This document shows, in pieces, positions 7,556 through 42,754 of a DNA stretch of 50,933 nucleotides (positions are counted from its first letter, which is position 1; each line of letters opens with the position of its first letter). The DNA comes from Minisyncoccota bacterium. Its GTDB lineage: Bacteria > Patescibacteriota > Minisyncoccia > Phycocordibacterales > UBA918. The stretch spans positions 1-50,933 of the forward strand of contig JAJOLD010000006.1 of NCBI GenBank assembly GCA_021129515.1, given 5' to 3'. Made by a program: the position numbers and the translations under genes. A model generated the notes under the pieces. That model saw only the letters and a program-made list of their open reading frames with translations. It did not search any database and was not told the origin of the DNA.

Positions 7556-8659
7556 ATGGTCACAGAGGTTATCAAGCGAGATGGCGTCATCGAAGCATTT
7601 GACGCAACAAAAATTAAAACAGCAATGCACAAGGCATTGGCAGTGGAAGGGGTCCCTGAAGACGAAGAGACTCTAGACGCGATGGTGGAGGCGGTGGGGG
7701 TCACACTACTTGCACTTGGGGAACGCGAAGGGCGCAGACCAACAACCGAAGAAGTGCAAGACACTATTGAACACGTGTTTATGCAGTATTCGTATTTTGC
7801 AGTAGCACGAACCTATATTTTACATCGATATCTTAAAGACGCCGGGAATGCTCAAGTGGTGGGCGATGGCGTCACTGCGGATAGTTTCATGATTACCCGC
7901 ACTGGAGGAAAAAAAGAACCATATGCACGCGAAAAAATGCACGCATACCTCGTGCGATTCGCTGAGGGGCATGCAGCAGCAATCGACTTTGATGCCGTGA
8001 TTGATAATGTGGAGCGTGGTCTCTACGACGGTATCAACACACGTGATATCGCAGCGCTCGTGACTGATGTACTGCGTTCGAGTATTGAAACAGATGCCGC
8101 ATACTCAGTTGTTGCAGCGCGACAGCTCTGTGATCGGGTATGTCAGGAGGTAACAGGTGGCACAACCACCCTTACCCGTGATGAATACAACGACGTATAC
8201 CGCACGGCGTTTGTGCGCGCAATGCGTCGCGGTGTTGAAGGTGGACAGCTTGATCGACGGATTCTTTCATTTGATCTCGAAAAGATGGCAGCGTTGCTTG
8301 ATCCTGCACGAGACAATCTCTTCATGTATCCGGGTGCTGCGCTCTTGCATAAAAAGTATTTGGTACGACTCGATAGTGGCGAGGTAATTGAAACGCCACA
8401 GATGATGTGGATGCGTATCGCAATGGGCGTTGCGCTTAATGAAGCGTATACCGAAACACGGGTACAAGAACTCTATGATGCAATGTCGACACTCCGTTTT
8501 GCACCGTCGAATCATTCACTGATGAGTATGGGCACGTATCAGGCAGCGTCGGTTGGAAATACCGCAGATACTGCTTCAGACGATATCAAGCACATCTTCA
8601 ATGTCTACGATGCTATTTCAGAGGAAATGCCCTCACGTGAAGCACTGAGTACCTTGTAG
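7556..8659 (+). CDS. Ribonucleotide reductase alpha-chain N-terminal fragment (ATP-cone + all-alpha domain); catalytic barrel missing
   Basis: ATP-cone VIKRDGVIEAFDATKIKTAMHKAL, then RNR N-domain-like sequence ending LRFAPSNHSLMSMGT... The usual ...SSCF... Cys region reads QAASVGN, and a stop follows at 367 aa. Confidence 0.65.
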   Translation: MVTEVIKRDGVIEAFDATKIKTAMHKALAVEGVPEDEETLDAMVEAVGVTLLALGEREGRRPTTEEVQDTIEHVFMQYSYFAVARTYILHRYLKDAGNAQVVGDGVTADSFMITRTGGKKEPYAREKMHAYLVRFAEGHAAAIDFDAVIDNVERGLYDGINTRDIAALVTDVLRSSIETDAAYSVVAARQLCDRVCQEVTGGTTTLTRDEYNDVYRTAFVRAMRRGVEGGQLDRRILSFDLEKMAALLDPARDNLFMYPGAALLHKKYLVRLDSGEVIETPQMMWMRIAMGVALNEAYTETRVQELYDAMSTLRFAPSNHSLMSMGTYQAASVGNTADTASDDIKHIFNVYDAISEEMPSREALSTL

Positions 8660-8680
8660 GGTGGGGGTGTTGGGGCATGT

Positions 8681-8854
8681 CTAGAGTATCCATATAATGC
8701 CAATAATGCATGCAATCAGTATCAGTACTCGACTGGTATTGATGATGCGTTCTTGTAACAAGATGGTTTCTGGTGTGATGCCATCATAGTACTCTTCGCG
8801 TGTCACGATTGGTAGCCCATGCTGGTCTCGTGCACGTTTTATAAACAATTTCAT
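8681..8854 (-). CDS. Possible 57-aa tail-anchored peptide (below ORF-track cutoff)
   Basis: My own translation is MKLFIKRARDQHGLPIVTREEYYDGITPETILLQERIINTSRVLILIACIIGIIWIL*. Confidence 0.3.
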   Translation of the reverse strand: MKLFIKRARDQHGLPIVTREEYYDGITPETILLQERIINTSRVLILIACIIGIIWIL

Positions 8855-9146
8855 TGCGCAAGGTTTTTAGGAATTAAACAAACCCGCCTACAGGAGGGTC
8901 TGGAACCTTGCGAGGAAACCAAACCACTATAAGCGGGTTTCTGGACGCAAGGTTTTTAGTGCCCCAGTGGGGCTGTGCGGTGATAATAGCATTATGTCGA
9001 TGTTTTTGAAAGTGTGGGCACTCCATGGTTTGGTGTGTGCAATCGCGCCTGTGCAGAGGAGTGCCCACAGGTTTTGCACAGATGTATATACAGGAAATGC
9101 GCGGTGTTTTGCAGGGGTTGTATACAGCAGTACTGCACAGTGCTGA

Positions 9147-9187
9147 GAATGAAGTCGCCGGCCGCTTTGCGACCGGCGACTTCATTC
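9147..9187. repeat. Perfect 15-bp hairpin in noncoding tract
   Basis: GAATGAAGTCGCCGG (9147-9161) pairs with CCGGCGACTTCATTC (9173-9187). There is no flanking T run. Confidence 0.6.
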
Positions 9188-9277
9188 GTGCAATACTACG
9201 CCAACCGCAAATATGGTTGATACATGTGCAAGATTTGTGCCGCTCATACGTTTATACTAAGTGAACCCTATTATCTT

Positions 9278-10456
9278 ATGACTACCAAATACTTTCTTTC
9301 ATGCACACTTGTGTTGGCATTCCTTGTGCCTGCGGCAGCTGACGCACGTACCTCGCTTGAGGTTGCAGGCTGGATTCCGTACTGGAGCGATACCGACGGC
9401 GTTGCTTCAGCAAAGAAGCACATTCGTGATCTTGATACCATCCACCCCTTTGCCTTTGAAGTGCAAAACGACGGTACCCTCAAAGACCGTGCAGACCTCG
9501 ATGAGTCAAAGTGGAAAAAATTATTTAAAACAGCAAAGAAGAGACGAGTGGACATTGTCCCAACGGTCACCTGGTTTAATGCAGCTGAAATTCACGCAGT
9601 GTTGAGTGACAAAAAGAAGCGCCGCGCGCACATTGATGCAATCGTCGAGATGGTCGACGAGGGGCGGTACGATGGTGTCGATATCGATTATGAAGGGAAG
9701 TGGGCACAGACGAAGGAGTACTTCTCACTCTTTCTCAAAGAACTTGAAGATGAGCTTGGGCGAGACATGCTCACCTGTACCGTTGAGGCGCGCACACCAC
9801 CTGAGTCGCTCTACCGTGACGTTCCTGACGATATTCAGTATGCAAACGACTACCGCGCAATCAACCGCTACTGTGATCGGGTAGAAATCATGGCATATGA
9901 CCAACAGCGTGCAGACCTTACGCTCAATAGCGAAAAGCGCGGTGAGCCATATAATCCGGTTGCGGATGCCGACTGGGTAGAGAAAGTCATCAAGCTTGCG
10001 CTTAAAGATATCGACGAGGACAAAATCATGCTCGGCGTACCAACCTATGGTCGCGAATGGACTATTACCGTGGAACCAGAGTGGTACAAAAGCTATGAGC
10101 GCATCAGTGCACGCAATATGCCGCGCGCGCTAGAGATTGCTGACGAGTACGACATCAAGCCCGGCAGGAACAAAGCAGGTGAGCTGAGCTTCACCTATTT
10201 CCCCGAGTCATCTATTTGGAATCTCCTCAACGTGCTTCCAGCGCCAAAGGGCACTACTAAGGGCAACGAAGCTGCAGCAAAAGCACTTCTTTTTGCAAAC
10301 GCAACGGGGCGAACCGTGACCGTGAACTATGTGACTATGTCTGATGCCGATGCAATTGAAGAGAAAATGGACCTTGCGGAGAAATATGACCTCCGCGGTA
10401 TCGCTATCTTCAAAATCGATGGAGATGAGGATGAGGAGATTTGGGATTTGTTTTAA
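9278..10456 (+). CDS. Secreted glycoside hydrolase family 18 (chitinase/YaaH-like)
   Basis: Signal peptide MTTKYFLSCTLVLAFLVPAAADA and the GH18 catalytic motif YDGVDIDYEG. Confidence 0.85.
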   Translation: MTTKYFLSCTLVLAFLVPAAADARTSLEVAGWIPYWSDTDGVASAKKHIRDLDTIHPFAFEVQNDGTLKDRADLDESKWKKLFKTAKKRRVDIVPTVTWFNAAEIHAVLSDKKKRRAHIDAIVEMVDEGRYDGVDIDYEGKWAQTKEYFSLFLKELEDELGRDMLTCTVEARTPPESLYRDVPDDIQYANDYRAINRYCDRVEIMAYDQQRADLTLNSEKRGEPYNPVADADWVEKVIKLALKDIDEDKIMLGVPTYGREWTITVEPEWYKSYERISARNMPRALEIADEYDIKPGRNKAGELSFTYFPESSIWNLLNVLPAPKGTTKGNEAAAKALLFANATGRTVTVNYVTMSDADAIEEKMDLAEKYDLRGIAIFKIDGDEDEEIWDLF

Positions 10457-12606: not shown

Positions 12607-12670
12607 CATGGGACGCTATTTAAAACCTTGCCTGATATTTTATAAGGTGTACACCGAAATAAAATATCGA

Positions 12671-12770
12671 TAAGGTGTACAGTTCCTGTATGCAAAGCAT
12701 GCTTGACCTGCACTCGCAGAATATATGAAAGTGAACTTCCATATTTCTCTTCGTTTGCTCAAGTAAGGAG
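12671..12770 (+). repeat. 100-nt noncoding direct repeat, copy R1
   Basis: It matches 15181-15280 at 89 of 100 positions with no gaps (my manual alignment). Confidence 0.85.
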
Positions 12771-12997: not shown

Positions 12998-13245
12998 AGA
13001 AGGTTGCAGAGCAGCAAAGCTGCGACAATAACCTTCTTATGCAGACGCTTCGCAAGTGAGCACGACCCAGTGCGAACATGCGTTAGCATCTGCGCTAGAA
13101 GGAGAGTATGTCGGAACATCGACTATAATTCTCTTATGCAAACGGTAGATATTTTGCGAGAAACACACGAGCAAAAATATCGTACCGTCTTGCGAGAAGG
13201 GAAATATCATTCTCGACTCTAATCCATCTTTTAACTCAAATTACC

Positions 13246-13428
13246 ATGAGCCGATTCATCAACTACCTTAAAGACACAAAAGCTGAGCTGCAGCACGTGT
13301 CATGGCCAACACAAACACAGGCAGTCGTGTACACAGCGCTTGTCATCATTATTTCTATAGTAATTGCAGCATTTCTTGGTGCACTCGACTACGTATTTAC
13401 CACAGGACTCGACTGGTTCCTAAAATAG
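13246..13428 (+). CDS. secE: Preprotein translocase subunit SecE
   Basis: 60 aa with a single TM helix, AELQHVSWPT motif, and position directly upstream of nusG. Confidence 0.9.
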   Translation: MSRFINYLKDTKAELQHVSWPTQTQAVVYTALVIIISIVIAAFLGALDYVFTTGLDWFLK

Positions 13429-13477
13429 GGATAGTACGTAGCGCCTAGCACTTAGAAAATGTGCCACAGGCACATTC

Positions 13478-13514
13478 CACTACTATCTACGAACTAATAA
13501 CTACAAACTCATTT
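13478..13514 (+). promoter_or_regulatory. G-poor CACTAC-N3-CTAC leader before nusG
   Basis: CACTACTATCTACGAACTAATAACTACAAACTCATTT then ATG. It is preceded by the hairpin AATGTGCC-ACA-GGCACATT, and no SD is present. Confidence 0.55.
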
Positions 13515-14060
13515 ATGGCAAAACAACATTCAACAGGAGAGCGACATTGGTACGTTATCCATACATACTCAGGCTATGAAAATGCCGTTGCCCGAAACCT
13601 CAAGCAGCGTATTGAGTCACTCGGCATGCAAAACCTCATTTTTGATGTAGTGGTACCAACTGAGAAAAAAATTCGTGTGAAAGGCGGTAAGCGGGTCACC
13701 GAAGAAGACCAAATGTATCCAGGATACGTGTTGGTTGAAATGATTGTGACCGATGAATCATGGTACGTCGTTCGAAACACACCGCGGGTAACTGGGTTTG
13801 TGGGGAGTGGTACACAACCAGTACCGTTGCAGCAAGGCGAACTTGATGCTCTCCTCAATCGTATGGAAGACGATACACCGAAGCACCGTGTTGATCTCTC
13901 AATTGATGACATCGTCATTATCAGCGATGGTCCATTCAAAGAGCTTGAAGGGAAGGTGGGTGAGATTGATGAAGAGCGTGGGAAAGTGAAGGTGTTGGTG
14001 AGTATGTTCGGTCGCGAAACGCCAGTCGAACTGGACTTCCTCCAAGTGAAGAAGGTCTAA
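13515..14060 (+). CDS. nusG: Transcription termination/antitermination factor NusG
   Basis: NGN domain RHWYVIHTYSGYENAV and KOW motif GPFKELEGKVGEIDEERGKVKVLVSMFGRETPVEL. Confidence 0.92.
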   Translation: MAKQHSTGERHWYVIHTYSGYENAVARNLKQRIESLGMQNLIFDVVVPTEKKIRVKGGKRVTEEDQMYPGYVLVEMIVTDESWYVVRNTPRVTGFVGSGTQPVPLQQGELDALLNRMEDDTPKHRVDLSIDDIVIISDGPFKELEGKVGEIDEERGKVKVLVSMFGRETPVELDFLQVKKV

Positions 14061-14174
14061 ATTGGCAAATTTCTTTGTTGCACTTCAGCAAATTACTGCT
14101 CACCGTATGTCCATATACGGCTCACAATAATTTCTTCGTGCGCCTCGAAATTTATTCAATTTAGAACTTCTTAG

Positions 14175-14200
14175 AAAAAAGACCTACTCAGGTCTTTTTT
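14175..14200 (+). terminator. Rho-independent terminator after nusG
   Basis: AAAAAAGACCT-ACTC-AGGTCTTTTTT. Confidence 0.8.
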
Positions 14201-14292
14201 CTTGTCTTACTATCAAGAGCACTGTCATTCTGAGCTTGTTTCAGAATCTGTGTCGACTAATTCTCATACGAGATACTTATACTTCCAGAGGG

Positions 14293-14321
14293 TTGTCAAA
14301 CAGCCCAGAATTATGTACTAT
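14293..14321 (+). promoter_or_regulatory. Sigma70-like promoter TTGTCA-17-TACTAT upstream of rplK
   Basis: Hexamers lie at 14293-14298 and 14316-14321. Confidence 0.4.
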
Positions 14322-14386
14322 TTCACCGCTTCTATTTTGACACATTCTGGCTATGGAACAGGACGTGTCTGACGCACGTAGTGCGT

Positions 14387-14423
14387 CACTACCGACTACG
14401 AACTACTAACTAACTACTAAGAA
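14387..14423 (+). promoter_or_regulatory. G-poor CACTAC-N3-CTAC leader before rplK
   Basis: CACTACCGACTACGAACTACTAACTAACTACTAAGAA then ATG. It is preceded by the hairpin TGACGCAC-GTA-GTGCGTCA. Confidence 0.55.
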
Positions 14424-14846
14424 ATGGCAAAGCAAGTAATTAACAAAATCAAAGTACAAGCTGTCGGAGGCAAGGCAACACCAGCCCCTCCGCTTGGTCC
14501 AGTACTTGGTCAGGCAGGAATCAACATCGGTGAATTCGTAAACCAGTTCAACGAGCAAACTCGTGAACGTATGGGGGAAGTCGTACCGGTTGAAATTAGT
14601 GTGTACGATGACCGCAGTTTCGATTTCATCATTAAAACCTCACCTGCATCACGTCTTATCCTTAAAAAAATTGGGAAGGACAAAGGTTCAGGAAAGAATC
14701 TCGTGTCAAAGGCGGGAGACATCACGCGAGATCAAATCCGTGAGATTGCAGAAGAAAAGATGCAAGACCTCAGCGCAAACGACATCGACGCTGCAATGAA
14801 AATCATTGAAGGGACTTGTCGGAGTATGGGGGTTCATGTGAAATAG
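14424..14846 (+). CDS. rplK: 50S ribosomal protein L11
   Basis: KVQAVGGKATPAPPLGPVLGQAGINIGEFVNQFN... is the canonical L11 N-domain. Confidence 0.95.
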   Translation: MAKQVINKIKVQAVGGKATPAPPLGPVLGQAGINIGEFVNQFNEQTRERMGEVVPVEISVYDDRSFDFIIKTSPASRLILKKIGKDKGSGKNLVSKAGDITRDQIREIAEEKMQDLSANDIDAAMKIIEGTCRSMGVHVK

Positions 14847-14912: not shown

Positions 14913-14968
14913 GAACAGTTCCTGTAAGGAATGCATATAATATAAATGTATATGCACGAAGTTTTTGA

Positions 14969-15024
14969 GCTATTTTGCGACTGGAAGGAGCGAAAATAGC
15001 CAAAAGGTATACAGCCTCTGTAAG
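14969..15024 (+). repeat. 56-nt intergenic element, copy 2
   Basis: Hairpin GCTATTTT.../...AAAATAGC, then CAAAAGGTATACAGCCTCTGTAAG. It parallels 1689-1744. Confidence 0.6.
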
Positions 15025-15151: not shown

Positions 15152-15180
15152 GAGTGAATGCAGAAAGGAAGCTCTGCTTA

Positions 15181-15280
15181 TAGGGTGTACTGTTCCTGTA
15201 TGCAAAGCATGCTTGAACTGCACTCGCAGAATATATGAAAGTGAACTTTCATATATCTTCTCGTTTGTCCAAGTAAGAGG
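15181..15280 (+). repeat. 100-nt noncoding direct repeat, copy R2
   Basis: See R1. It contains the perfect hairpin ATATGAAAG-TGAA-CTTTCATAT. Confidence 0.85.
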
Positions 15281-26595: not shown

Positions 26596-26782
26596 GGCAG
26601 ACACCGACGTTTGTTCTGTGCAAATTGTAAAAAAGTGCTAGGATAGGACGTATCCGCATGACTCTATCAGTGTACGGTGACATGAATAGGTGTGCGGGCG
26701 TGTCTGATACACACGGCTGATGTACTTCTCGGATTGCGAGTTGTACATCGGGATTATTATGTCTGATATACATATCATAAGT

Positions 26783-29700
26783 ATGAGTGATAAGAATAAG
26801 TATAAAGAGAATGTGACTGCGTCACATTCTGAAGATGGTGTAAAGAGCGACGTTGCACGTCGCGAAGAGGACGTGCTCGCATTTTGGAACGAGCATGACA
26901 TTTTTAATAAAAGCCTAGAAAAAGAATCACCCGAGGGTGATTTTGTATTTTATGACGGGCCGCCGTTTGCAACGGGTCTGCCGCACTATGGGCATATTTT
27001 GGCAGGGACTATTAAAGACGCAATCCCGCGCTTCTGGACGATGAACGGTTACCATGTGAAGCGAAAGTGGGGATGGGATTGTCATGGGTTGCCGCTTGAA
27101 AATATTATTGAGAAGCGACTTGGATTTTCTACCAAGCGCGACATTGAAGAATTTGGTATTAAAAATTTTAATGAAGCAGCACGAGACGCGGTGATGGAGT
27201 ATGCAGACGATTGGAAACAGGTTATCCCGCGCATGGGTCGTTGGGTAGATATGGAAGATGACTACAAGACCATGGACCCTACCTATACTGAGTCTGTGTG
27301 GCATGTGTTTAGTGAGCTCTATAAGAAGGGGTTGGTGTATGAAGGGTTTAAGAGCATGCACCTGAGTCCACGTAGTGGTACCACGTTGTCGAACTTTGAA
27401 GTTAATCTTGGGTATAAAGACATTAAAGATATTGCGGTTACGGTGAAGTTGCCACTCCTTGATGAAGCTGGCGAGGTGACTGATACATCGCTTCTTGTAT
27501 GGACCACCACCCCATGGACATTGCCGGGCAACATGGCAGCAGCGGTTCATAATGATCTCGAGTACGAGTGCGTAGAAGTAGAAACTGATGCGGGAAAAGA
27601 AAAATATATTTTGGCCAAGGAACGACTTATACAGCTTGGTGATATTCCATATCAAGTGCTGGAAACCATTCTCGGAAGCGCCTTGACGGGTAAGAAATAT
27701 CAACCACCATTCCCATGGCTCGGTGAACAGAAATTTGAAGGTAAAGATACGGCTTGGACTATCTACCACGCTGACTACGTCGAAGTAGGTGAGGAAGGAA
27801 CGGGAGCGGTACACATTGCCCCTGCCTACGGTGAGGAAGACCTCGCACTCGCGCAGGAAGAAGGTATCCCAATTGTGCATCATGTCGACTACGAGGGGCG
27901 TTTCATGGACTTCGTTACTGACTTTGCTGGGCAGCTTGTCAAGCCAAAGGATGACGATGATGCGGGCGTCACGCACCTTGATGCTGATATTGAGATTGTG
28001 AAAGCACTGAATGCGTCAGGGAAACTCTTTAAGAAAGAAAATATCACCCACAGCTATCCACACGATTGGCGCAATGGTGCACCACTTCTCAACTATGCAA
28101 CTACATCATGGTTTGTTGCGGTAACAAAAATCAAGGAAGAGCTTGTTGCTGCGAATAATACCGTGCACTGGGTGCCTGAACATGTCGGCACTAATCGGTT
28201 CGGAAAGTGGCTTGAGGGTGCGCGCGATTGGGCGGTCTCACGGCAGCGATACTGGGGTGCGCCGCTGCCGATTTGGCAGAATCCTGAAACTAAAGACTTC
28301 AAAGTGCTTGGGTCACTGCAAGAGATTCGAGAGCATGTACGTCGGTCAGGGAATGCCTTTTTCTTGATGCGTCATGGGGAGGCGGATTCTAATGTCACAG
28401 GCTTCTCAAGCACCAAGATAGACGCAGCGAACCCAATGACTGAAAACGGTACGGCGCAAGTTGCTGATGCGCTGGTGGGACTCAAAGAGAAAAATATTGA
28501 CCTTATTATTGCATCACCATTCCAGCGCACTCGTGAAACTGCTGAGCAAGTTGCAGAAGGACTCGGTATCGCAAAAGACGCAATTGTATACGACGAACGT
28601 ATCGGCGAGGTGCAGTTGGGGGCGATTGATGGGGTGAGTACCGAGGAGTACCACCAGTTTCTCGATGAGGGCGGGTTGTGGTGCGAGTCTGCACCCGAAG
28701 GTGGTGAGTCATGGTCTGATGTGAAGCGGCGTGTGGGTGCGTTCCTCTATGACACTGACAAAGCATATGAAGGAAAGAATATTTTGGTCATTGCACACAA
28801 CAGCCCGCTACAGATGCTGGGTGCGGTCAATGATGGATTGTCACTGCGTGATGAGGCATTTGCCTATGATGCTGATGGCAAACGATACAACAATGCTGAG
28901 GTGCGTGAGTTGCCATTTGTGCCTATGCCACACAACGACAACTATGAGCTCGACTATCACCGACCGTATATCGATGATATTGAACTGTATGACTTTGACC
29001 CGAATGCACCTGAAGGTGCACGGGCAGGTGGCACCAAGCTCGAACGGGTGCCTGATGTCTTTGACTGTTGGTTTGAGTCGGGCGCAATGCCGTATGGGCA
29101 GCAGCACTATCCGTTCGAAAACCTTGATCAGTTCGACCCTGAGACGGGGAAGGGGTATCCAGCAAACTTCATCGCAGAAGGGCTTGACCAAACGCGTGGG
29201 TGGTTCTACTCACTCATTGTGCTGGGGACGGCACTCTTTGGGAAGTCGCCGTACCAGAACGTGATTGTAAACGGACTGGTACTTGCAGAAGACGGGAAGA
29301 AGATGAGTAAGTCGCTCCAGAACTATCCCGACCCAATGGAACTTGCTGATCGTGTGGGTGTCGATGCGATGCGCTTCTACCTCCTCTCCTCACCAATTAT
29401 CCGTGCTGAGGACCTTAATTTTGCAGAGCAAGGTGTCCTTGAATTGCAGCGAAAGAATATTGGACGGTTGCACAACGTACTTGCGATGTACGAGCAATAT
29501 GCAGACGAGTACACGAAAGCAGATGCAACCTCAACACAGGTCTTAGACCGCTGGATTCTCGCACGCCTCCATGAACTCACACGCGATGTTACTGCAGGAT
29601 TCAAAGGCTATGAACTCGATAAGGCAACGCGACCGATTACTGACTTTATTGATGATCTTTCGGTGTGGTATCTCCGCAGATCTAGAGATAGGCTGAAAAA

Positions 29701-30376
29701 TTCTGAAGATAGTACAGACAAAACAGCGGCACTGAGCACGCTGAAGTATGTGCTTCGAGAACTTGCGCTTGTGATGGCGCCATCGATGCCGTTCTACTCA
29801 GAGTATCTCTACCGCCGCGTGAAGGAAGAAAGTGATATGGAGAGTGTGCACTTAGCGCAGTGGCCTGAAACTGCTGCAGTAGACGAGGAGGTCTTGGCTG
29901 ACATGGCAACCGTGAGGCAAACGGTCACCCTCGCACTTGAGGCGCGTGCAAAGGCGGGTATCAAAGTGCGACAGCCACTTCAAACACTCACCGTGAAGCA
30001 AGAATCTGTCGTGGCTGATGTGGCATACAAAACACTTATTGCAGATGAGGTGAACATAAAGGAGGTTGTTGCTGATGCATCGCTAGAGCATGAAGTTGTA
30101 CTTGATACTGAAATTACCCCAGCACTCCAGGCAGAAGGCAATGCCCGTGAGTTTATGCGTCACGTACAAGACGCACGCAAGAAAGCAGGACTCCAGCCAG
30201 ACGATGTCATTGTGCTTACCGTGACTGACGCAACCAAGGCGCTTATTGGTGTCCATGGGGAAATAGTCGCGATCACCGTCGGTGCGAGCGAGATTACCAC
30301 TGAGAATCTGGGAGAAGACGCACTTGTCGCGAAAGTCGATGGTACCGACTACCAGTTCACCATCACACTCATGTAA
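26783..30376 (+). CDS. ileS: Isoleucyl-tRNA synthetase (type 2-like) carrying an inserted histidine-phosphatase domain
   Basis: GLPHYGHILAG (HIGH), KKMSKSL (KMSKS) and DWAVSRQRYWGAPLPIW. The start is ambiguous (26720, 26759 or 26783). Confidence 0.92.
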   Translation: MSDKNKYKENVTASHSEDGVKSDVARREEDVLAFWNEHDIFNKSLEKESPEGDFVFYDGPPFATGLPHYGHILAGTIKDAIPRFWTMNGYHVKRKWGWDCHGLPLENIIEKRLGFSTKRDIEEFGIKNFNEAARDAVMEYADDWKQVIPRMGRWVDMEDDYKTMDPTYTESVWHVFSELYKKGLVYEGFKSMHLSPRSGTTLSNFEVNLGYKDIKDIAVTVKLPLLDEAGEVTDTSLLVWTTTPWTLPGNMAAAVHNDLEYECVEVETDAGKEKYILAKERLIQLGDIPYQVLETILGSALTGKKYQPPFPWLGEQKFEGKDTAWTIYHADYVEVGEEGTGAVHIAPAYGEEDLALAQEEGIPIVHHVDYEGRFMDFVTDFAGQLVKPKDDDDAGVTHLDADIEIVKALNASGKLFKKENITHSYPHDWRNGAPLLNYATTSWFVAVTKIKEELVAANNTVHWVPEHVGTNRFGKWLEGARDWAVSRQRYWGAPLPIWQNPETKDFKVLGSLQEIREHVRRSGNAFFLMRHGEADSNVTGFSSTKIDAANPMTENGTAQVADALVGLKEKNIDLIIASPFQRTRETAEQVAEGLGIAKDAIVYDERIGEVQLGAIDGVSTEEYHQFLDEGGLWCESAPEGGESWSDVKRRVGAFLYDTDKAYEGKNILVIAHNSPLQMLGAVNDGLSLRDEAFAYDADGKRYNNAEVRELPFVPMPHNDNYELDYHRPYIDDIELYDFDPNAPEGARAGGTKLERVPDVFDCWFESGAMPYGQQHYPFENLDQFDPETGKGYPANFIAEGLDQTRGWFYSLIVLGTALFGKSPYQNVIVNGLVLAEDGKKMSKSLQNYPDPMELADRVGVDAMRFYLLSSPIIRAEDLNFAEQGVLELQRKNIGRLHNVLAMYEQYADEYTKADATSTQVLDRWILARLHELTRDVTAGFKGYELDKATRPITDFIDDLSVWYLRRSRDRLKNSEDSTDKTAALSTLKYVLRELALVMAPSMPFYSEYLYRRVKEESDMESVHLAQWPETAAVDEEVLADMATVRQTVTLALEARAKAGIKVRQPLQTLTVKQESVVADVAYKTLIADEVNIKEVVADASLEHEVVLDTEITPALQAEGNAREFMRHVQDARKKAGLQPDDVIVLTVTDATKALIGVHGEIVAITVGASEITTENLGEDALVAKVDGTDYQFTITLM
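28340..28948 (+). other. Histidine phosphatase superfamily (PGAM-like) domain embedded in ileS
   Basis: FLMRHGEADSN, ASPFQRTRETA, GGESWSDVKRR and LVIAHNSPL. All four catalytic signatures are in frame. Confidence 0.8.
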
Positions 30377-30399
30377 CACGCGTGTCGCAGCCGCGCGTG

Positions 30400-30436
30400 C
30401 ACTACTCTCTACCATCTACCTACTAATTACTACATT
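30400..30436 (+). promoter_or_regulatory. G-free CACTAC-N3-CTAC leader before recO
   Basis: CACTACTCTCTACCATCTACCTACTAATTACTACATT then ATG. It is preceded by the GC hairpin ACGCG...CGCGT. Confidence 0.55.
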
Positions 30437-41440: not shown

Positions 41441-42025
41441 ATGGCAGAAAACAATATGCCAGCAGCTGAGGCACCAGAGCTTTTCGACGATGAGCGAAAG
41501 AGCTATGAATTTGCCTTCCACGTACTTCCAACAGTTGCTGAAGGGGAAGTAGCTGGAGTGTTTGAAGCACTCAAGGCGCTCATTACACAACAGGGTGGTG
41601 AGATTTTTTCAGAAGAAGCACCCGAACGTATTGATTTAGCGTATGCAATCGTACAGTCAGTGCAGGGAAAGCATCGCAAATATGCAAGCGCGTATTTTGG
41701 GTGGATTCGCTTTACGCTCAATGGGGAGCGTATGGAAGCACTTGCTGAAGAAATTGATGCAAACCAGTCACTCCTACGACACCTGATTATCAAACTCACC
41801 AAGGCGGAAGAAGAAAATCCGTATCGATTCCACGAAAACCGAAAATCTAAAAAGGTCGTTGATGTGGTTGATACGCCAGTAGCTGATTCGAAAGAAACAA
41901 AGGATGCAGTTGAAGAACCTGCGACCAAAGAGGCTACTGCTAGCGAGGCTAGCACGCCTGATGCTGCTAAAGAAGCATCAAAAGAGGCAGCAGCTGATAC
42001 TGATGCAGAGAAAAAGGAGGTATAA
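41441..42025 (+). CDS. rpsF: 30S ribosomal protein S6 with long acidic C-terminal tail
   Basis: YEFAFHVLP...ERIDLAYAI...YFGWIRF...LLRHLIIKL core, and position upstream of ssb-rpsR. Confidence 0.75.
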   Translation: MAENNMPAAEAPELFDDERKSYEFAFHVLPTVAEGEVAGVFEALKALITQQGGEIFSEEAPERIDLAYAIVQSVQGKHRKYASAYFGWIRFTLNGERMEALAEEIDANQSLLRHLIIKLTKAEEENPYRFHENRKSKKVVDVVDTPVADSKETKDAVEEPATKEATASEASTPDAAKEASKEAAADTDAEKKEV

Positions 42026-42063
42026 TACTACACACTACTTACTCATAACTACCTACTAACCTT
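42026..42063 (+). promoter_or_regulatory. G-free TACTAC-N3-CTAC leader before ssb
   Basis: TACTACACACTACTTACTCATAACTACCTACTAACCTT then ATG. Confidence 0.5.
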
Positions 42064-42510: not shown

Positions 42511-42754
42511 ATTCCTGAACAACCTGTCTACGTCGTTGCGACTATAATTTTGTCAGGCACGGTAGGTCCACTACCGCTTCCTCCAAAATCTTGTTGCGCC
42601 GCGTATCCAAATCATTCAGAAGATTTAGAAAATACAGCTTAGATAATTTTAAGCTCTAAAATAATACTGATATTGAAAATTTGAAACTAAAAAATTATTA
42701 GAAATAATTTTTTAGTCCTAAGTACTAGGTGCTCAGGGCTAAGAACTACACAAC

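Follow-up and report, generated by a model that had tools for sequence, protein, structure and literature searches.

The DNA examined here, termed the window, is a 50,933-nucleotide (nt) stretch of a Minisyncoccota bacterium contig (JAJOLD010000006.1), and all coordinates refer to its plus strand unless stated otherwise. Among the genes it carries are nusG, rplK, recO, ssb, and rpsR, and the subject of this report is a leader, built from tandem 7-nt units, that precedes each of them. The first-pass annotation had described a motif, YACTAC-N3-CTAC, located 37, 37, 37, and 38 nt before the starts of nusG, rplK, recO, and ssb, respectively. This description is accurate. Four exact copies of YACTACNNNCTAC are present in the window (at 13478, 14387, 30400, and 42026) versus 0.10 expected, all are on the plus strand, and the distances to the ATG codons at 13515, 14424, 30437, and 42064 are as described. 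By Pfam, the downstream products are NusG, L11, RecO_N, and SSB.

Heptad arrays adjoining start codons

The proposal that the motif is a discrete box at a fixed distance from the start did not hold. When each leader is read in register, it consists of five tandem 7-nt units that run up to the ATG, and the box corresponds to units 1 and 2 of this array. The unit consensus is CTA-M-N-N-W. A or C fills position 4 in 90% of units, with G found there in only 2 of 90, and position 7 is mostly A. Units within an array are imperfect copies that differ at three to four of their seven positions.

The window was scanned for five CTA triplets at a period of 7, with CTC scored as half, and 100 shuffles of the window served as the control. 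The scan recovered the four known arrays and a fifth, located before rpsR, that had been overlooked. No such array occurs in the 100 shuffles or inside any gene of the window. All five start-adjacent arrays are in the sense orientation and end 0–2 nt before the called start. The arrays and two related features are as follows.

13480 to 13514, plus strand: nusG array, CTACTAT CTACGAA CTAATAA CTACAAA CTCATTT, preceded by CA; found by scan; abuts ATG 13515
14389 to 14423, plus strand: rplK array, CTACCGA CTACGAA CTACTAA CTAACTA CTAAGAA, preceded by CA; found by scan, unpaired in the predicted fold; abuts ATG 14424
30402 to 30436, plus strand: recO array, CTACTCT CTACCAT CTACCTA CTAATTA CTACATT, preceded by CA; found by scan; abuts ATG 30437
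42028 to 42063, plus strand: ssb array, CTACACA CTACTTA CTCATAA CTACCTA CTAACCTT, preceded by TA; found by scan; abuts ATG 42064
42718 to 42752, plus strand: rpsR (S18) array, CTAAGTA CTAGGTG CTCAGGG CTAAGAA CTACACA, followed by ac; found by scan; ends 2 nt before ATG 42755
13209 to 13245, plus strand: secE leader, a degenerate member by composition, with one G, no TG, and two CTC/CTA units in register; ATG 13246
13428 to 13455, plus strand: inverted heptads GGGATAG TACGTAG CGCCTAG CACTTAG (UAG every 7 nt), found by scan as a CTA array on the minus strand

The ssb array, whose last unit is 8 nt long, begins 2 nt past the rpsF stop codon and fills the 38-nt gap between rpsF and ssb. The 37 nt before the nusG, rplK, recO, and ssb starts contain 1, 3, 0, and 0 G residues, which agrees with the 0–3 noted originally, and they lack TG dinucleotides. 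Therefore, these four G-poor arrays offer no NUG start codon.

The inverted heptads lie directly past the secE stop codon and 5′ of a hairpin in the nusG leader. The secE stop itself is a TAG that is followed by further TAG triplets at 6- to 7-nt spacing, which places stops in three frames (window positions 13426–13455). The same is seen in two other loci (L214, 4069–4090; L019, about 411–438).

Hairpins, promoters, and Shine–Dalgarno usage

The folds reported here are minimum-energy predictions. The first-pass annotation had placed three of its four motif copies after a short hairpin, and these are recovered at nusG, rplK, and recO. The rpsR array is also preceded by a stable hairpin, and the ssb array by the rpsF stop codon. 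In all five copies in the window, the distance from the hairpin or stop to the AUG is 35–38 nt. The nusG, rplK, recO, and ssb arrays are unpaired in the predicted folds, except for part of nusG unit 1. The hairpins and the promoters upstream of them are listed below.

13397 to 13426, plus strand: predicted nusG promoter, TTACCA-18-TAAAAT, sigma-70-type, within the last secE codons; consensus scan only
13458 to 13476, plus strand: nusG leader hairpin, AAUGUGCC-aca-GGCACAUU, −9.9 kcal/mol, z −4.4; kept in the closest relative (L211)
14293 to 14321, plus strand: rplK promoter, TTGTCA-17-TACTAT, TG-extended; consensus scan, with the same layout in relatives
14328 to 14369, plus strand: conserved element of the rplK 5′ untranslated region (UTR), with an invariant GCUUC and a hairpin (14339–14369) whose loop is GCUAUGGAA; covariation
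14370 to 14388, plus strand: second rplK leader hairpin, UGACGCAC-gua-GUGCGUCA, immediately 5′ of the array, −11.6 kcal/mol, z −3.0
30377 to 30399, plus strand: recO leader hairpin, immediately past the ileS stop (30374–30376), −12.5 kcal/mol
42686 to 42716, plus strand: rpsR leader A/U hairpin, 14 bp, before the array, −9.7 kcal/mol, z −6.0

The region upstream of rplK bears on whether the arrays are transcribed. In more than 15 relatives, rplK is preceded by a promoter (TTGCCA/TTGCAA-17-TGTACGAT), an invariant GCTTC, and a hairpin carrying the loop GCUAUGGAA, and the window has the same layout. The hairpin shows compensatory changes in all 10 of its pairs across 20 sequences. Moreover, 77% of alignment cells are paired, versus 36%–46% with slid partners, and the covariation score is 0.69 versus 0.14–0.23. 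The rplK array is located ∼60–95 nt downstream of the promoter. Because a conserved promoter and a covarying hairpin lie upstream, the rplK array most likely resides inside a transcribed 5′ UTR. The recO and ssb arrays occupy intergenic gaps of 60 nt (ileS–recO) and 38 nt (rpsF–ssb) that leave no room for a promoter, and they are therefore also parts of mRNAs rather than promoters. Furthermore, two secE arrays in relatives (L017 and L019) are located downstream of TTGACA-17-TAATAT-type promoters. We infer from these arrangements that the element would act in mRNA, which supports the earlier view of a distinct, G-poor repeat leader in RNA. No promoter was found within the nusG and rplK arrays by consensus scan or within the recO, ssb, and rpsR arrays, which were inspected by eye only. 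The case for the predicted nusG promoter is weak, since its TAAAAT overlaps conserved secE codons.

The rplK 5′ UTR element is an observation in its own right. It is also present in L001, L006, L012, L014–L017, L021–L026, L029, L032, L033, and L036, and its hairpin loop, (G)CUAUGGA(A)C, is nearly invariant. Nothing in Rfam matches the element, which may be a new ribosomal-protein leader, possibly for L11, in a clade whose rplK genes have no rplA behind them. A different leader is found at secE. Most relatives (L001–L080) carry a −10-like box and a GC hairpin with a U-run (e.g., cgcccgcCGGGCGTTTTAATTTTG) approximately 25–45 nt upstream of this gene. This feature is promoter-proximal and resembles a terminator, with the hairpin ∼25 nt from the ATG, and it is absent from the window.

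Shine–Dalgarno (SD) sequences are used elsewhere in the window. The first-pass annotation had cited such genes as evidence that the repeat leaders provide a separate initiation context, and four starts in the window have canonical SD sequences at suitable spacing.

ATG 16226: SD-led start of dcd, GAGGTG, spacing 5 nt
ATG 25936: SD-led start, AAGGAG, spacing 6 nt
ATG 40206: SD-led start, GGAGGT, spacing 5 nt
TTG 43336: SD-led start, AAGGAG, spacing 6 nt

About 8 of 50 starts in the window have an SD-like sequence, five have a heptad array, and about 14 of 50 have a −10-like box 5–11 nt before the ATG. The TATAAT-like boxes of the last class, as seen for the genes at 2123, 7556, 19747, 26783, and 34922, suggest that leaderless mRNAs may be common in this genome. 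None of the five arrays in the window contains GGAG or GAGG. The same is true of relatives, for which we collected 126 leaders: These tetramers are absent from positions −18 to −4 in all 59 rplK leaders and all 67 nusG leaders. The G content of these leaders falls toward the start and is 4%–7% at positions −10 to −1, and the fraction of A at positions +3 to +29 of rplK is 0.61. The clade as a whole therefore lacks SD sequences before nusG and rplK. A perfect AAGGAGGT is present at 42014–42021, within the last rpsF codons and 43 nt upstream of the ssb ATG. This is too distant for a normal SD and may simply be coding sequence.

Arrays in relatives and metagenomes

The window was compared with 80 loci from relatives (L001–L080) and with additional contigs and loci (L100–L214). 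All NusG relatives are Patescibacteria (Paceibacteria, Kaiserbacteria, and similar groups), and the window itself comes from a Kaiserbacteria-like member of the Paceibacteria. The exact motif is not conserved in these loci. Only one occurrence of YACTACNNNCTAC was found in the 80 loci, which is the level expected by chance, whereas the placement of CTA every 7 nt recurs. The five-heptad design is present in L006, L015, L017, L019, L020, and L055. The 80 loci hold 10 CTA arrays. Seven have their ends no farther than 10 nt from a secE, nusG, or rplK start (no farther than 1 nt for five of these), and the other three are inverted partners of start-adjacent arrays. No TAG-oriented array abuts a start in these loci. 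Repeats at a lag of 7 nt are commoner there than at lags 4–12.

The closest relative (L211), whose NusG is 90% identical to that of the window, permits a direct comparison of nusG leaders. The hairpin is kept with compensatory changes, as are a G-poor spacer of 36–38 nt and the core ACTAWTAACTACAAACYCATT. One unit has been gained beside the ATG, and units at the 5′ side are degenerate or lost. Since the spacer is kept despite this gain and loss, total length is conserved while individual units turn over. In another relative (L214, 88% identical), the nusG leader reads (TAGNNNN)x3, hairpin, CTACATA CTAAGAA CAAATAA CTAATTA, atc, ATG. UAG heptads precede the nusG leader of L019 as well.

A metagenome scan with a five-unit CTAC pattern returned mostly heptamer microsatellites, and at least ∼10 contigs were informative. 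Among the matches listed, there was no additional contig from the species of the window. Five units is the commonest array size in relatives and among the metagenome matches listed. The most elaborate example (L127; OFRM01000288.1) is a ribosomal-protein operon with at least six near-identical cassettes. Each begins ∼8 nt past the upstream stop codon and is composed, in order, of GUAG heptads, a hairpin with a GAAA loop, and five CTAC heptads that lead into the ATG. The genes of this contig are on the minus strand, most intergenic gaps hold hairpin cassettes of heptads that are ∼85 nt long, and there is no rplP between rpsC and rpmC. Its cassettes fall into two families, CTTGTAG/CTACCAG and AGTACCT/GTACTAA. 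Five heptads precede each of two divergent genes in L116, and arrays are found before nusA and ppa in L186. Further examples come from L100, L114, L122, L189, and L199.

The same strain is present in several assemblies from different samples, with 99.7%–100% identity. No change was seen inside any of the five arrays in the two to six other assemblies that cover each, and the comparison is uninformative about selection. The only nearby changes are two single-nucleotide polymorphisms, of which one affects the inverted UAG heptads that precede nusG and the other the rpsR hairpin.

Several other features of the window are recorded here. Two direct-repeat families are present in long noncoding stretches around the secE–nusG–rplK cluster. 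One pairs 12670–12767 with 15180–15277 (91% over 98 nt), the other pairs 1680–1744 with 14960–15024 (71% over 65 nt), and one copy is just downstream of tRNA-Leu. The isoleucyl-tRNA synthetase (26783–30376) contains an inserted histidine-phosphatase (His_Phos_1) domain at residues 548–702 of the 1218-residue translation of its open reading frame (ORF; 26720–30376). The ribonucleotide reductase large subunit (7556–10456 region) amounts to just 367 amino acids, covering an ATP-cone and the N-terminal domain, and a GH18 gene comes next. The counterpart in L211 (1–1992) is a large subunit of 967 amino acids plus a small subunit, which suggests that this locus may be truncated or rearranged in the window strain.

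Possible functions of the heptad arrays

The interpretation we favor, if only tentatively, is that the arrays are single-stranded leaders that load ribosomes without an SD, that are made by heptamer slippage, and that are held at ∼35 nt. The upstream contact region of the 30S subunit, as defined by footprinting, is also ∼35 nt. The single-stranded tract would serve as a landing or standby site for the 30S subunit, either directly or through bS1, and would thereby do the job of the SD. It would also set the first AUG approximately one upstream ribosome footprint from the hairpin, which in turn would insulate, stabilize, or terminate the upstream RNA. Heptamer slippage would make and resize the tract, and selection would fix its length and composition. 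Of the functions offered originally, SD-independent initiation is thus the best supported, given the complete absence of GGAG and GAGG from the 126 leaders of relatives, the depletion of G, and the predicted unpaired state of the arrays. The implied requirement for a G-poor tract was not sustained.

There are precedents for leaders of this kind. The omega leader of tobacco mosaic virus is reportedly active in bacteria. In Escherichia coli, ribosomes use single-stranded tails of CA repeats as standby sites (PMC5934652). Like the arrays, CA tails and omega are G-poor, built of repeats, free of an SD, and often located beside a hairpin; they are also single-stranded, as four of the five window arrays are predicted to be. 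However, CA tails saturate at 16–18 nt and need no register, whereas the arrays have a strict 7-nt period, a CUA core, and five units abutting the AUG. Unlike either, the arrays, as known here from sequence, are natural chromosomal leaders of several genes. Bacteroidetes also initiate translation without an SD (PMC7797042). As in the present clade, the absence of SD sequences before highly expressed genes is lineage-wide, a few SDs are kept, and start regions are A-rich and G-poor. The mechanism in Bacteroidetes relies on bS21, bS18, and bS6, which occlude the anti-SD, and no heptad arrays have been described there. Here, the bS18 gene (rpsR) carries an array instead of an SD.

The window has no match to Rfam 15 at the gathering score except two tRNAs, and matches for positions 13380–14460 at E ≤ 10 are at chance level only. 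No published account of the element was found in the literature, nor was anything on how Patescibacteria initiate translation or on their leaders and SD usage. The element is a putative undescribed, lineage-specific variant of SD-independent leaders.

Several observations weigh against the ribosome-loading interpretation. It does not explain why CUA is kept at every seventh position, and a generic unstructured leader needs no period; this spacing recurs in the window, in six relatives, and in the unrelated contigs L116, L127, and L186. It likewise leaves unexplained the inverted UAG arrays upstream of some copies, which match the arrays only at UAG/CUA with filler that is not complementary (window, L214, and L186). 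G-poverty is not essential, since the rpsR array has G in its filler and the L127 and L186 arrays contain G. Nor are all arrays predicted to be single stranded. Upstream sequence offers the rpsR array a pairing partner, the two arms of the nusG leader in L019 are mutually paired, and four of the five heptads of the L127 cassettes are buried in long stems (−38 kcal/mol, z −5.3). Finally, only 6 of 80 relatives carry arrays, a patchy distribution, and L211, the closest relative, has none before rplK.

The unexplained period raises the less likely prospect that CUA every 7 nt is a phased recognition code, whose reader measures five 7-nt steps from the hairpin to the AUG. Such a reader would be an oligomeric single-stranded RNA (ssRNA)-binding factor or a feature of the 30S platform or bS1 of Patescibacteria. 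As a regulatory counterpart, which we also regard as unlikely, the arrays could be phased sites for an oligomeric or cooperative ssRNA-binding protein, for example one of the cold-shock/OB or KH type, whose site size is 7 nt. Starting from the hairpin, such a protein would occupy five sites up to the AUG and control the translation of a set of core genes together, much as at the T4 gene 32 operator. Both gp32 and cold-shock proteins cover ∼7 nt each. The gene 32 operator reportedly comprises a structured nucleation element followed by a tract of ∼40 nt of unstructured short repeats that extends to the start, and it is said to be covered cooperatively at ∼7 nt per monomer. The likeness to the arrays includes the presence of ssb among the window genes; the operator serves one autoregulated gene and has the repeats UUAAA/UAAA, whereas five unrelated genes are involved here. 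A binding protein would account for the strict period, the conserved CUA(M) core with free filler, the fixed number of five units, and the adjacent structured element. The genes are mostly those of the expression machinery as well: nusG, secE, rplK, rpsR, and ssb, together with the genes for L22, S3, L29, L24, and L5 in L127 and nusA in L186.

RNA sites made of triplets at a fixed period are known for TRAP and HutP. The period is 7 for HutP, each face of which binds three XAG triplets, each with a 4-nt spacer (PMC2425495). HutP sites flank a GC-rich stem, and the UAG heptads upstream of the nusG hairpin share the XAG-N4 spacing exactly. However, HutP reads A and G and acts in antitermination, whereas the start-adjacent arrays are CUA(C/A) with almost no G; the conserved A and G of a HutP-type site are found only in the UAG-N4 heptads of the upstream nusG arm. 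No HutP homolog turned up in the analysis of the window, in which no search aimed at HutP was made. More generally, no candidate binding protein was identified, and the unannotated ORFs of the window have no Pfam hit on record. Arrays also come and go among close relatives, as noted above for L211 and the 80 genomes. A single specific reader is made unlikely by the unrelated heptads that precede neighboring genes in one genome, such as CTAACAC, CTATAAG, and TTGCTTn in L055 and the two cassette families of L127.

The arrays might instead be arms of interrupted RNA stems or cleavage-prone tracts that serve mRNA processing or decay (RNase III or single-strand endonucleases), or they might enforce strict translational coupling, with the upstream ribosome opening the stem to free the start region. 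UA(C/A) steps are typical endonuclease targets. The long L127 stems that start ∼8 nt past a stop codon fit this idea, as do the largely complementary arms of L019 and L055 and the intercistronic location of the recO and ssb arrays. However, for four of the five arrays in the window there is no complementary partner, and the predicted folds leave them unpaired; the nusG arms there match only at UAG/CUA. We therefore consider processing or coupling quite unlikely as the general function.

The arrays might alternatively be read in DNA, as a duplex operator of 7-bp boxes for a ribbon-helix-helix protein that acts as a roadblock or repressor. The omega repressor/ParB system of pSM19035 is defined by at least four contiguous 7-bp units in direct and inverted orientation (PMC9499535). 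There are five units per array here, and on either side of the nusG hairpin the window, L214, and L186 have mutually inverted CTA and TAG arrays whose filler is not complementary, as expected for a site recognized in duplex DNA. Omega sites are duplex DNA at promoters or centromeres with the unit WATCACW, whereas the arrays are strand-specific, transcribed, and locked to starts. Start-adjacent arrays are always in the sense orientation (none of more than 12 is reversed) and end at the ATG, neither of which a duplex site would need, and their strand-specific G depletion indicates RNA. They are found downstream of promoters rather than on them, and several unrelated heptads occur within one small genome. 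No ribbon-helix-helix gene was identified in the 51 kb of genome covered. An operator of this type is therefore improbable.

Two further proposals are very hard to sustain. One is that CUAC/CUAA units pair with a single-stranded GUAG/UUAG stretch of rRNA in place of the SD:anti-SD interaction, for which the conserved CUA(M) core and its fixed register to the AUG are the only points in favor. However, a few window genes have a correctly spaced canonical SD, which makes a standard anti-SD probable, and the arrays are patchy among relatives although rRNA is conserved. The 3′ end of 16S rRNA was not found in any of the relative or metagenome loci fetched. It is just as doubtful that the arrays are neutral heptamer microsatellites that sit by chance in AT-rich leaders. 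Tandem heptamers of the CTACNNN type are abundant in metagenomes, and the turnover of units between the window and L211 has the dynamics of slippage. Nevertheless, the number of units stays near five, all arrays are in sense orientation and abut starts, and lag-7 repeats are enriched over lags 4–12 in relatives. The units are imperfect and their number is constant among the other assemblies, which is not the behavior of contingency-type microsatellites.

Least credible is that the 35-bp array is itself the promoter (−35 to −1) of a leaderless mRNA starting at the ATG: The length is exactly 35 bp, TA falls at −13/−12, and −10-like boxes precede other starts in the window, but the T that should close a −10 hexamer is missing from those in the arrays (TACAAA, TAACTA, TAATTA, and TACCTA), the −35 position is ACTACN, a genuine promoter and covarying UTR hairpin lie upstream of the rplK array, and the ssb and recO arrays are inside operons.

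Two other ideas were tried and rejected. CTAA/CTAG arrays in relatives close all reading frames, as a three-frame stop cassette would, but the CTAC arrays of nusG, recO, ssb, L186, L116a, and L199 do not. Recent copying of one cassette within the window has no strong support, with filler identity of 7–11 of 20 positions versus 5.9 for the null and with unrelated hairpins.

A large part of bacterial diversity belongs to the Patescibacteria (candidate phyla radiation, CPR). They cannot be cultured on their own, and how they start translation is essentially unstudied. The arrays provide a compact candidate for an SD-independent initiation signal or a posttranscriptional regulon in these organisms. 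The rule they define, five CUA-phased heptads from hairpin to AUG, can be scanned for; it marks true starts and would improve start calling. If the periodicity is read by a specific factor, then it would represent a new mode of start-site selection. If the arrays are a phased code, then this code would take the place of SD pairing in a regulon made up of core genes for transcription, translation, and DNA maintenance, which would make it the bacterial equivalent of eukaryotic regulons encoded in leaders, such as the terminal oligopyrimidine (TOP) mRNAs.

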